The notes under the pieces were generated by a model that was not told the origin of the DNA, did no database searches, and saw nothing but the letters and a program-made list of their open reading frames with translations. Positions 56,409-59,107 of a stretch of 64,000 bases of DNA are shown here, piece by piece; positions within the stretch are counted from its first letter, which is position 1, and each line of letters starts with the position of its first letter. A program made the translations under genes and the position numbers. Source of the DNA: Escherichia coli (GTDB lineage Bacteria > Pseudomonadota > Gammaproteobacteria > Enterobacterales > Enterobacteriaceae); assembly GCF_048403405.1 (NCBI RefSeq), contig NZ_CP183129.1; one strand, written 5' to 3'.

Positions 56409-56635
56409 TTACCCTGAACTGACGATACAACAAAGGCGCAACGCTTTTGAGATAAAGGATCGATGCTTTCGCTGCTTTTACCCTCTACCATTAGGCTAAT
56501 TGCGACGAGAAAGGGACGAACTATGAATACTAACGTTTTTCGACTGCTCCTGCTGGGAAGCCTGTTCAGCCTTAGCGCCTGTGTGCAGCAAAGCGAAGTG
56601 CGACAGATGAAACACAGCGTCAGCACACTGAACCA

Positions 56636-56800
56636 GGAGATGACGCAACTCATTGACATCCTCCACGCCCTGAAGGACGTGGATCCCTGCTACGTTCAGG
56701 CTGTCGCCTGAATCATTTCGGTGGGTTCCTGCTTCAACGGGCGGCCTGACTGCACCATCCCTCCACAGGCAAGAACGGCGTGCCCCGCCGCTAAAATGTT
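56636..56800 (-). ncRNA. predicted omega RNA (right-end element RNA) of TnpB; extent approximate
   Basis: Inference from family architecture: omega RNA overlaps the tnpB 3' end, runs through the right end (hairpin 56663-56682) and ends in a flank-derived guide, predicted here as 5'-GAGUUGCGUCAUCUCC. Not directly visible as a gene. Confidence 0.3.
56663..56682. repeat. right-end subterminal imperfect palindrome of the IS
   Basis: CCACGCCC-tgaa-GGACGTGG, one mismatch in the stem; near-identical to the left-end copy. Confidence 0.75.
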
Positions 56801-57904
56801 ACGAGCGCCATTTACATCGGCGTTCGCTGTATATCCACATACCTGGCATCTGAATTTACTTTGTGACAGGCGATTTTCTTTCGCTGTATGACCACAGCAC
56901 GCGCAACGCTGGCTTGTGTACGCTGGCGGAACAGCAAGCACCTGACCGCCACGCCAGAGCTGCTTGTACTCAAGCTGGCGGCGCATTTCATACCAGCCCT
57001 GATCCAGTATCGAACGGTTTAAACCTGATTTTGCCCGGACATTGCGCCCCGGCTGGCTGACCGTACCCGCTGCTGACTTTGACATGTTACTGACCTTCAA
57101 ATCCTCAATGACTATCATTGCGTGGTTTTTGCTGACGGTCGTTGTGACTTTGTGAAGGTAGTCCCTGCGGATATTTGCGATACAGGAATGCAGTCGCTGT
57201 ATTTTGCGTTTCTGCTTCTGCCAGTTGTTGCTGAATTTGACCTTGCGGCTTAACTGTCGCTGAAGTCTCGCCAGCGTCTTCTGGTTTTTCTGAAAACTGT
57301 TTACAGGCTCAAAGACTGTGCCATCTGACAGCGTGGCGAGTTTAGCCACGCCAGCATCCAGCCCGACCATTGATGCTGAAGGGTGAACCGGAGTTGATAC
57401 TTCACTTTCTGTCTGAATACTGATGTACCACTTACCGCAGGACTGGCTGACAGTGACATTTTTCACAACACCCGTGACCTGACGGCTATTCCGGTAGCGC
57501 ATCCAGCCAAGTTTCGGCAGAAAAATACGGCTGTTTTCCTGATCGAGCTTAACGCCCTGCGGGTAGCGGAATGCATCATTCTGTCCCCGCTTTTTGAATC
57601 GGGGAAAAGCAGCCCGCTTCTGGAAGAAGTTTTTGTAAGCCCGCTCAAGGTCTTTCAGTGACTGTTGCAATGGCTGTGACGGGGCATCTTTAAGCCATTG
57701 CGTTTCAGTGGCATTTTTCCACTCAACCAGCCAGGAAGCCATTTTCCCGTAAGGGATGTATTTATTACCGGCCTCATGATTCTCATTCTGAAGCGCCAGA
57801 GCACGATTGAAAACGAAACGACATGCGCCTGCGAAGCGCCTCATTTCACGCTCCTGTTGACCACCGGGTCTTAACTGGAATTTAAATGCCTGTAGTCGTT
57901 TCAC
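56696..57904 (-). CDS. tnpB: TnpB (OrfB), RuvC-like RNA-guided nuclease of IS200/IS605 family
   Basis: 402-aa ORF; Ruv[12 protein letters not shown], Ruv[14 protein letters not shown], zinc finger CACCGH...CQVCGY, Ruv[14 protein letters not shown]; no frameshift or internal stop. Confidence 0.9.
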
Positions 57905-57911
57905 AGGCCAA

Positions 57912-58439
57912 ATGATACTTTGGTCTGTGAAAAAAGAAACCGATATCCGGCGTGGAAGGCATTGTGTTTTCCTGATGCATGTTCACCTGGTCTTTGTCAC
58001 CAAATACCGACGTCAGATTTTTGACCATGACGCGACAGAAAAACTACGCACTTACTTTTCAAAGGTATGTGCTGATTTTGAAGCTGAACTGGTTGAAATG
58101 GATGGCGAACCAGATCACGTCAATTTGTTAATTAACTATCCTCCCAAACTGGCGATATCCAGTCTGGTAAACAGCCTCAAAGGCGTATCGGGTAGGTTAC
58201 TGCGACGAGATCGACCAGATATTGCCGTCAGGTATTACTACAAAGGCGTTTTGTGGAGTCCTGGCTATTTTGCCAGTAGCTGCGGAGGTGCGCCAATATC
58301 CGTCATCCGCCAATACATTGAACAACAGCAAACACCTGGTCAGGTGGAAAACCGCGCCTTATATCCCCGCCCTGAAGGACGGGGTTTTACGGCGCACCGG
58401 ATAAAGAAACAGTCAAAATCACTCAGCAAAACAGGCTGA
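57912..58439 (+). CDS. tnpA: IS200-type Y1 (HuH) transposase TnpA; HuH motif reads H-V-N
   Basis: 175-aa table ORF (true start may be internal ATG at 57975); TKYRRQIF, DHVNLLI and GGAPISVIRQYIEQQ align to IS200/IS608 TnpA from memory; last ~13 codons lie beyond the inferred IS end. Confidence 0.8.
   Translation: MILWSVKKETDIRRGRHCVFLMHVHLVFVTKYRRQIFDHDATEKLRTYFSKVCADFEAELVEMDGEPDHVNLLINYPPKLAISSLVNSLKGVSGRLLRRDRPDIAVRYYYKGVLWSPGYFASSCGGAPISVIRQYIEQQQTPGQVENRALYPRPEGRGFTAHRIKKQSKSLSKTG
58365..58384. repeat. left-end subterminal imperfect palindrome of the IS
   Basis: CCCCGCCC-tgaa-GGACGGGG; differs from the right-end copy at two stem positions. Confidence 0.75.
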
Positions 58440-59107
58440 ATGCAAAATCCAGCAGTGGGGTTTACCTTCTGCCTGGAGCGAAAACACCAGCAAGACTGGA
58501 AAGCCAGATCGGTACTTTACGTATGTCGCTGGTGAATATTACGCCTGATACAGATGGCACCACCCTGACGCTACGTATTCAGGGCGAGTCGAATGATCCC
58601 TTGCCCGCATTCAGCGGAACTGTTGAATATGGGCAAATTCAGGGAACAATAGACAACTTTCAGGAAATCAATGTGCAGAATCAATTGATTAACGCCCCTG
58701 CCAGCGTCCTCGCCCCCAGCGATGTTGATATTCCGTTACAGTTAAAGGGTATTTCTGTGGATCAGTTAGGCTTTGTACGTATCCACGACATTCAACCTGT
58801 TATGCAGTAAACGTTTCGCGGGGCGTTTTGTGCGTCCCGCAACATCTTTCCCCGTCATTTTGTTACTCTGCTTACATCACCCAGATTGATAGTAAAAGTT
58901 TGCAACAAGGGTGAAAGTCAGTACAATCCCCGCCCGAATGTGTGTAAACGTGAACGCAATCGATTACGTAAATGATAGAACTGTGAAACGAAACATATTT
59001 TTGTGAGCAATGATTTTTATAATAGGCTCCTCTGTATACGAAATATTTAGAAACGCAATTTGCGCCTTTTTCACTCCCGCAAGGGATTTTCAAACAGTGG
59101 CATACAT

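Follow-up and report, generated by a model that had tools for sequence, protein, structure and literature searches.

Among the systems closest to the insertion described here, IS608 of Helicobacter pylori combines a Y1/HUH transposase (TnpA) with TnpB, has subterminal hairpins on its top strand, no inverted repeats and no target duplication, and inserts 3' of a short T-rich motif with its top strand on the lagging-strand template. Its tnpA and tnpB are co-oriented. Its right end has TCAA 10 nt 3' of the foot of the hairpin (PMC3201880), and placement of the top strand on the lagging-strand template is a known bias of the IS200/IS605 family as a whole (PMC5027513). ISDra2 of Deinococcus radiodurans offers solved TnpB structures (PDB 8exa, 8h1j), a TAM of TTGAT and a structured RNA that spans the tnpB 3' end together with the right end and takes its guide from the flank. 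Closer still, a published table (PMC6963479) reports for Escherichia coli ST38 strain 28Eco12 an element named IS609, 1,748 bp long, 'inserted within the yajI gene' with flanks CTCA and ATAA; tnpA decay, the TTTAT motif and TnpB are not discussed there. E. coli K-12 carries an IS609 relic between ydcL and ydcO, consisting of insQ and a tnpA pseudogene.

In the 64,000-nt stretch of E. coli DNA that we analyzed (assembly GCF_048403405.1, contig NZ_CP183129.1; hereafter the window), yajI is split at 56653–58400 by a 1,748-bp element whose top (active) strand is the minus strand of the window. We identify it as IS609, a member of the IS200/IS605 family with IS605-type organization, from its near-identity to copies that are annotated as such: five genomes have 100% identical copies, and other copies, with a tnpA that carries the annotation 'IS200/IS605-like element IS609 family transposase', match it at 99.1–99.3% over 1,747–1,748 nt. 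The original prediction that a member of this family interrupts yajI is borne out by the Y1_Tnp and TnpB domains of the encoded proteins. Within the element, tnpB (minus strand) and tnpA (plus strand) are divergent, unlike the genes of IS608. The 28Eco12 copy has the same length, site, flanks and orientation, its left-end junction is 100% identical to the window over a 240-nt query, and the two copies differ by point differences only. This insertion is already known and already published.

The yajI frame opens at 56523 on the plus strand, enters foreign DNA after codon 43 and reopens up to its stop at 58810. The 5' fragment (56523–56652; 43 codons and the first base of codon 44) visibly encodes a signal peptide and the lipobox LSAC. 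In its present form, it extends 19 further codons into the element to a stop at 56709–56711, for a product of 62 aa, and at an identical locus it is annotated as an incomplete DUF3251 pseudogene. The 3' fragment (58401–58810, plus strand) takes up codon 44 at its second base and continues to the end of the stop codon. Joining 56652 to 58401 gives exactly the junction of uninterrupted yajI (CAACTCA/ATAAAG) and, as foreseen, restores a 179-codon lipoprotein ORF (540 nt with its stop, equal to the annotated yajI length). End to end, this ORF fits the model of the SadB/YajI family lipoprotein (DUF3251) and includes a lipoprotein signal peptide; NCBIfam NF008575 scores 317.6 bits (cutoff 158) over residues 1–179, on a model of 183 positions. 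Against the uninterrupted allele WP_001314529.1 there is one synonymous nucleotide difference, at ORF position 105 and unrelated to the junction. Strains with yajI::IS609 lack a functional YajI lipoprotein.

The insertion is precise, as had been claimed, although the boundaries first given (56652–58399) are one base off. With the earlier join of 56651 to 58400, the best uninterrupted allele reaches at most 99.5%, and the mismatch falls exactly at the junction; codon 44, then read as Asp, is Asn in uninterrupted alleles (ORF position 130 is A, not G). The frame of reference for this one-base shift is provided by other copies of IS609 and its relatives. Because all right ends stop at ...GTCAA (8/8 examined) while the next base varies (T, C, G, T, A, G, G or C), the top-strand T, seen as A at 56652, belongs to the flank. 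At the left, TTTAT directly precedes CCGG or CCGA in 5/5 ends examined, and the same comparison makes the top-strand C (G at 58400) the first base of the element. The published flanks and coordinates for 28Eco12 (PMC6963479) agree with 56653–58400. A second boundary comparison was available at the tetR/ytfB site, which is empty in TUM14771, a strain carrying a 100% identical element; the right flank of that site begins with C, and both sets of boundaries give the same joined string there. There are no terminal inverted repeats, and the flanks CTCA and ATAA share no repeat. As originally predicted, there is no target-site duplication, and removal recovers the uninterrupted junction exactly; yajI::IS609 is a textbook IS200/IS605 insertion.

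The right end of IS609 (56653–56686, minus strand) contains a subterminal hairpin at 56663–56682, CCACGTCC-TTCA-GGGCGTGG (whole, CCACGTCCTTCAGGGCGTGG), from which 10 nt (AGGATGTCAA) lead to the tip. Terminal TCAA (56653–56656), which we assign from the sequence as the right cleavage site, has the same geometry as in IS608, and GGAT (56683–56686) occupies the position of the guide tetranucleotide. The left end (58341–58400, minus strand) begins with C, the complement of 58400, and has its hairpin, CCCCGTCC-TTCA-GGGCGGGG (whole, CCCCGTCCTTCAGGGCGGGG), at 58365–58384. This hairpin lies 16 nt from the tip (in IS608, a distance of 19 nt is given between left cleavage site and hairpin), and AAAA (58385–58388) stands at the guide position. 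The two hairpins are near-identical and on the same strand (two matches observed, none expected by chance), compensatory changes are present in relatives, and the left hairpin, when folded as the top strand, has a T-G wobble at a position where the bottom strand gives an A-C mismatch. At every variable column, the ends of the window copy equal the consensus of the aligned copies, which suggests that this copy could still be moved by TnpA given in trans.

Directly 5' of the left end on the top strand lies TTTAT (58401–58405, minus strand), the target site and predicted TnpB TAM. The original prediction was sound in picking the top strand and in expecting a flanking target/TAM motif; the motif that it proposed, TTTATC, had taken in the first base of the element. 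The same pentamer precedes the left end at four independent IS609 sites (yajI, tetR/ytfB, gltX-yfeD and ydcL-ydcO) and in a 78%-identical Klebsiella relative, with a variable base before it (C, G, A, T and G at the five sites). Plasmid copies of IS609, considered as extra left-end sites, are mostly fragments of tnpB and the right end without a left end and were usable for right ends only. The flank ATAA published for two ST38 copies (PMC6963479) is the complement of the target motif. IS608 targets TTAC where IS609 targets TTTAT (at least TTAT), and its left guide is AAAG where that of IS609 is presumably AAAA; the shift from AAAG/TTAC to AAAA/TTAT is what pairing between guide and target would predict. 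The plus strand of the window has a GC skew of –0.031, the minus strand (the IS top strand) being G-rich, from which we infer that the top strand of IS609 lies on the lagging-strand template, as in IS608. Base-precise ends and a target motif for IS609 are thereby provided.

The transposase gene, in contrast to its ends, has decayed. The tnpA pseudogene (57912–58439, plus strand) is recognizable by Pfam Y1_Tnp (3.4e-40), by NCBIfam transpos_IS200 (143 bits, cutoff 55), by matches at about 1e-19 to the TnpA proteins of IS608 and ISDra2 in the PDB and by comparison with intact copies, two of which, in the comparison set, encode a TnpA of 143 aa. Intact IS609 TnpA bears the accession WP_000604912.1. 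The regular tnpA of 143 codons ends in TAG at 58341–58343; the window has CAG there, and the frame stays open across the left end and ends within yajI DNA at 58439. We rejected the resulting 175-codon read-through frame as a native form of tnpA, since intact IS609 copies stop at codon 144 and PGAP calls the long form incomplete (at an identical locus, tnpA is annotated 'incomplete; missing C-terminus' and marked as a pseudogene). A second lesion, in codon 71 (58122–58124, plus strand), replaces CAT (His) with AAT (Asn) at the second His of the HUH metal-binding motif, turning DHVHLL into DHVNLL; in alignments to solved Y1 transposases, this codon stands opposite the ...PDHIHLF... motif. Among seven aligned copies, that of the window is the only one with His71Asn, which the five genomes with a 100% identical element necessarily have as well. 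The catalytic Tyr (in QYIEQQ) remains, and so do both positions of the catalytic motif besides H71. These lesions suggest that the TnpA of the window is inactive and that this copy cannot excise itself, in which case yajI would stay inactivated.

Decay of this kind is common to the yajI copies. Stop-loss occurs in all four that we examined, and each has an additional tnpA lesion: H71N in the window, a nonsense mutation in ST2747 and FXCREC043 and a frameshift in 98200. In 28Eco12, tnpA is pseudogenized in both full-length IS609 copies; the closest complete genomes also have a second IS609 'place' besides the yajI copy. The K-12 relic, which differs from the window copy at 32 of 1,748 positions, shares the TTTAT flank, the loss of the tnpA stop and an intact 402-aa tnpB, but it has an extra internal stop in tnpA and sits at another, intergenic locus, one found in most E. 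coli.

Of 5,426 complete E. coli genomes, exactly 340 (about 6%), the ST38 strains 28Eco12 and 266917_2 among them, have both IS609-yajI junctions, and the position and orientation of the element are the same in 340/340 carriers. Alignment of the flanks to uninterrupted yajI, a check named beforehand, was colinear over 100% of the 395-nt query (built on the earlier join) in 5,080 of the 5,426 genomes. The four yajI copies differ from one another at 13–29 of 1,748 positions (0.7–1.7%), no less than IS609 copies at different loci do (14–23 differences), and their flanks differ by up to about 3% (1–2.9% on the left). Judged from these comparisons, yajI::IS609 is an old, inherited insertion and not a recent one, and, carried by roughly 6% of complete E. 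coli genomes, it is a handy lineage marker. Some IS609 lesions are common to different sites, and the apparent age may owe something to gene conversion among IS609 copies or to more than one insertion into this site.

The original prediction had instead called the copy 'recent and clean'. Read in this way, the insertion would be strain-specific and autonomous, and its precise excision could restore yajI; ends and hairpins identical to the consensus of other copies, an intact tnpB and yajI flanks that join in frame would all fit. Such a reading is extremely improbable, given the same junctions in 340 genomes, the publication of the ST38 case in 2019, a tnpA with no stop codon and with H71N in its HUH motif and the divergence of the yajI copies, each with its own tnpA lesion. 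Recurrent, independent insertion at the same yajI TTTAT in several lineages could account for a divergence among yajI copies (13–29) as large as that between loci (14–23), and for mosaic flanks, in a family with a short, fixed insertion motif. TTTAT, however, is a very common pentamer, and yet position and orientation are identical in every carrier; the stop-loss is common to all four yajI copies examined, a copy with a dead tnpA would need a helper every time, and yajI showed no intermediate sites. We regard a hotspot of this sort as very unlikely.

The history that we favor, and consider very probable, is that of an old IS609 insertion in yajI that arrived by peel-and-paste transposition, was inherited and is now non-autonomous, its tnpA decayed and its tnpB intact. 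In this history, a circular, single-stranded top-strand intermediate would have been pasted 3' of TTTAT on the lagging-strand template, splitting yajI codon 44 after its first base and duplicating no target bases. The insertion would then have been inherited, possibly also moved by recombination, to become a marker of lineages that include ST38, and tnpA would have decayed after insertion, first through the stop-loss seen in all yajI copies and then through independent lesions such as His71Asn. In the window, IS609 is likely fixed and non-autonomous but continues to encode TnpB and a predicted guide RNA directed against uninterrupted yajI. Its importance lies mainly in annotation, and it illustrates the usual fate of such elements, in which the transposase decays and tnpB persists.

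The tnpB gene (insQ; 56696–57904, minus strand) is intact and encodes 402 aa. Its product has the Pfam domains HTH_OrfB_IS605, OrfB_IS605 and TNB, scores 388 bits against NCBIfam guided_TnpB (cutoff 100) and aligns over residues 3–376 to the ISDra2 TnpB structures 8exa and 8h1j (E 1e-54), with which it shares the domain set, the RuvC D/E/D residues (D183, E267 and D363) and the zinc finger (C334/C337 and C353/C356). It is annotated as intact at an identical locus, and the 402-aa ORF is open in 6/7 copies. Variant codons are synonymous or non-synonymous at 22:24 in tnpB and 3:14 in tnpA, small counts in both genes. IS609 TnpB is also among nine purified orthologues in one screen (PMC12781874).

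On the model of ISDra2, a structured RNA is predicted to span the tnpB 3' end and the adjoining right end. This putative omega (guide) RNA (56633–56800, minus strand) would comprise a scaffold at about 56653–56800 and a guide from the flank, 56633–56652 (5'-TGAGTTGCGTCATCTCCTGG-3'), antisense to yajI; the length and function of the guide are taken from work on ISDra2 and IS608 (PMC8612924; bioRxiv 10.1101/2023.03.14.532601). The region has a fold z-score of –2.84 and a consensus structure with five compensatory pairs, drawn from only six sequences and with most of the scaffold overlapping the tnpB coding sequence. No named guide-RNA family of Rfam reaches its gathering score in the region; HgcC (23.8 bits, E 0.0099, against 50) and RAGATH-18 (28.1 against 44.9) both fall below. 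By analogy with its relatives, TnpB with this RNA should act as an RNA-guided nuclease that uses 16–20 nt of yajI at the right end as its guide and TTTAT as its TAM, where ISDra2 uses TTGAT. TTTAT and the guide target stand together only in uninterrupted yajI, so the nuclease would cut a restored or incoming wild-type allele and favor re-copying of IS609.

An active TnpB could have shaped the distribution of the insertion. After a single insertion, the nrdR-yajI-tsx segment could have spread horizontally by homologous recombination, possibly assisted by TnpB/guide-RNA cleavage of uninterrupted yajI (homing). The left flank (ribD-nrdR) differs by 1–2.9% among carriers whereas the right flank is almost invariant, TnpB is intact, uninterrupted alleles contain the predicted TAM and target, and for relatives, TnpB homing has been documented (bioRxiv 10.1101/2023.03.14.532601); recombination after vertical inheritance would nevertheless explain mosaic flanks equally well. 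We hold this route to be unlikely, inheritance of an old insertion, possibly with some movement by recombination, being our preferred account. More doubtful still, tnpB and the right-end RNA may have been kept after the death of tnpA because they are functional, the nuclease destroying wild-type yajI (TTTAT followed by TGAGTTGCGTCATCTC...) that arrives by recombination or transfer. Such a chromosomally fixed, transposase-independent 'allele guard' would lock in yajI::IS609 in ST38-like lineages and perhaps aid its spread. If IS609 TnpB is active, yajI::IS609 could provide a natural case of an insertion maintained by TnpB without a transposase.

Elsewhere in the 64-kb window, searches for further IS609 copies matched only the two hairpins of this element, and no tRNA genes were found. 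A scan of the whole window against Rfam returned sraA and SRP RNA alone.

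The window carries the known IS200/IS605-family element IS609, and its insertion site already appears in a published table. The insertion is already known and holds nothing surprising for a specialist; what we add are its base-precise ends, the TTTAT target motif, its frequency (340 of 5,426 genomes) and a demonstration that its tnpA has decayed. As the original prediction proposed, the element interrupts the lipoprotein gene yajI, whose frame starts at 56523, runs for 43 codons into foreign DNA and is open again beyond the element to a stop at 58810. The predicted 179-codon ORF was regained on in silico excision and matches the YajI family model over its full length (317.6 bits versus a cutoff of 158). 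The truncated yajI (56523-56711, plus strand) still encodes the signal peptide and lipobox and continues for 19 codons into the IS (62 amino acids in total); a small lipoprotein remnant could be produced from it.

Two divergent genes lie 7 bp apart within the element: tnpB on the minus strand (56696-57904; 402 codons) and tnpA on the plus strand (57912 onward). The tnpB product has three TnpB domains, matches NCBIfam guided_TnpB at 388 bits (cutoff 100) and aligns over nearly its full length with solved ISDra2 TnpB structures (E about 1e-54); tnpA encodes a Y1/HUH transposase. These matches, together with copies 99.1-99.3% identical whose tnpA is annotated as IS609, bear out the family assignment. 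Two nearly identical 20-nt hairpins, where chance predicts none, lie on the minus strand at 58365-58384 (CCCCGTCCTTCAGGGCGGGG) and 56663-56682 (CCACGTCCTTCAGGGCGTGG); both form full stems there with a T-G wobble, which becomes an A-C mismatch on the plus strand. The tip at 56653 is the right end, since tnpB ends beside it, and the top strand is therefore the minus strand. This tip lies 10 nt from its hairpin and terminates in TCAA, a geometry like that of IS608 (PMC3201880). The left cleavage point is separated from its hairpin by 16 nt, with AAAA as the four bases 5' of the hairpin foot. IS608 has an AAAG guide that pairs with a TTAC target; the AAAA and TTAT of IS609 at yajI are the change that would be expected if the same pairing rule applies. 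On its plus strand the window has a GC skew of -0.031, and the top strand is therefore the G-rich strand, that is, the lagging-strand template, a documented preference of the family (PMC5027513).

Uninterrupted yajI from 5,080 genomes is colinear with the originally predicted join of 56651 to 58400, but at a best identity of only 99.5%. Two uninterrupted alleles each show two mismatches to this join, one exactly at the junction, where ORF position 130 is A rather than G (Asn44 rather than Asp44). When both ends are moved by one base, setting the element to 56653-58400, the uninterrupted junction ...CAACTCA/ATAAAG... is exactly regained and one synonymous difference is left elsewhere. In every IS609 copy or relative examined, the top-strand right end reads ...GGATGTCAA with differing bases beyond it (T, C, G, T, A, G, G, C), and all left ends begin CCGG or CCGA directly after TTTAT. 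Given the junction mismatch and these other ends, we rejected the earlier boundaries as one base off; in-frame restoration stands, but the single misassigned base made both residue 44 and the proposed flanking motif, TTTATC, wrong. The same insertion in 28Eco12, a published ST38 carrier, was described as a 1,748-bp IS609 flanked by CTCA and ATAA (PMC6963479), in agreement with the shifted boundaries. Because joining 56652 to 58401 rebuilds the uninterrupted junction, the 179-codon ORF is restored and there is no target-site duplication, as had been claimed. Comparison of copies found TTTAT directly before the left end at four IS609 sites unrelated to one another (yajI, tetR/ytfB, gltX-yfeD and ydcL-ydcO) and in a Klebsiella plasmid element of 78% identity; the base preceding TTTAT varies.

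By megablast, IS609 is found in 5,015 of 5,426 complete E. coli genomes, with 100% identical copies in five. The identical locus of strain TUM14771 has the gene order secF-yajD-tsx-'yajI-tnpA-tnpB-yajI'-nrdR-ribD. Right-end and left-end junction queries each matched at full length in exactly 340 genomes, including 28Eco12. Relative to three other yajI carriers (ST2747, FXCREC043 and 98200), the window's IS copy has 13-24 differences over 1,748 positions, those copies differ among themselves by up to 29, and their 1.5-kb ribD-nrdR flanks are 1.0-2.9% different from the window's. The copy had been called recent and clean; junctions shared by 340 genomes, diverged copies and flanks, and the tnpA lesions described next leave that description unsupported. 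In comparisons of the window with loci L002, L004 (ST2747) and L010, the ribD-nrdR side (55153-56652) showed 2.3-3.5% differences between E. coli genomes and the tsx side was >99.8% identical, so that diversity changes abruptly across yajI.

The tnpA stop codon is lost in all four yajI copies compared (TAG to CAG at 58341-58343), and each bears a further lesion: His71Asn in the window (C to A at 58122), a nonsense codon in both ST2747 and FXCREC043, and a frameshift in 98200. By alignment with solved Y1 transposases, His71 is the second His of the HUH motif, and PGAP annotates a tnpA pseudogene at each of these loci. With its stop lost, the tnpA frame (57912-58439, plus strand) crosses the left-end hairpin and enters yajI DNA by 39 nt, so the product is 175 aa long and ends in a 32-residue tail read in a different frame from yajI. 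The K-12 IS609 relic is a close parallel, with the same tnpA stop loss and an intact insQ. By contrast, a full-length tnpB ORF is present in six of seven copies compared, with D183, E267, D363 and both CxxC pairs kept; the distinct variant codons, small in number, split into 22 synonymous and 24 non-synonymous for tnpB, against 3 and 14 for tnpA.

The other full-length IS609 of 28Eco12 likewise has a dead tnpA, and the second site (tetR) of TUM14771 is empty of IS609. The ST2747 yajI, K-12 ydcL-ydcO and 28Eco12 tetR/ytfB copies share two tnpA lesions, the stop loss and a nonsense codon at ...SGR-stop-LRR..., while the tetR-site copy of strain 88-3493 is intact, which suggests either gene conversion between copies or mobilization of defective copies in trans. 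In 88-3493, 28Eco12 and TUM14771 (L013, its tetR-site locus, 5118-5501), a tetR/acrR-family gene separates yjfZ from ytfB; it is annotated as a pseudogene even without IS609, and the element may have hit an already dead gene.

By the family's established mechanism, a circular top-strand intermediate of IS609 would have been inserted 3' of TTTAT on the lagging-strand template, and the window copy is now probably unable to excise or transpose by itself. The last ~150 nt of the element show significantly stronger folding than shuffled sequence (z = -2.84), share a consensus structure with five compensatory pairs over six relatives and give sub-threshold Rfam matches to HgcC and RAGATH-18 ending just past the right tip; TnpB guide RNAs of ISDra2 and IS608 are made at the equivalent region (PMC8612924; bioRxiv 10.1101/2023.03.14.532601). 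If such an RNA is made, its predicted guide, TGAGTTGCGTCATCTC..., would be antisense to yajI and, with TTTAT as TAM, its target would be present only in the uninterrupted allele, predicting a classic transposon-retention arrangement.

The 64-kb window has no tRNA genes, and its only Rfam matches above gathering score are the sraA sRNA (28761-28856, plus strand) and the small SRP RNA (11026-11122, minus strand). Strain 98200 carries a second IS200/IS605-family element <2.5 kb from the yajI insertion, an IS200C tnpA between yajD and secF (9031-9489 of its locus, L009). Many plasmids hold an IS609-like tnpB and right end only (query positions about 498-1748), without tnpA or the left end, as in an E. 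coli plasmid with darA antirestriction genes (L008 and L014), a Salmonella Infantis plasmid (L018) and an E. coli IncFIB plasmid (L019); 1,826 plasmid records have some IS609 match, and just 73 of them match it over 80% or more of its length.
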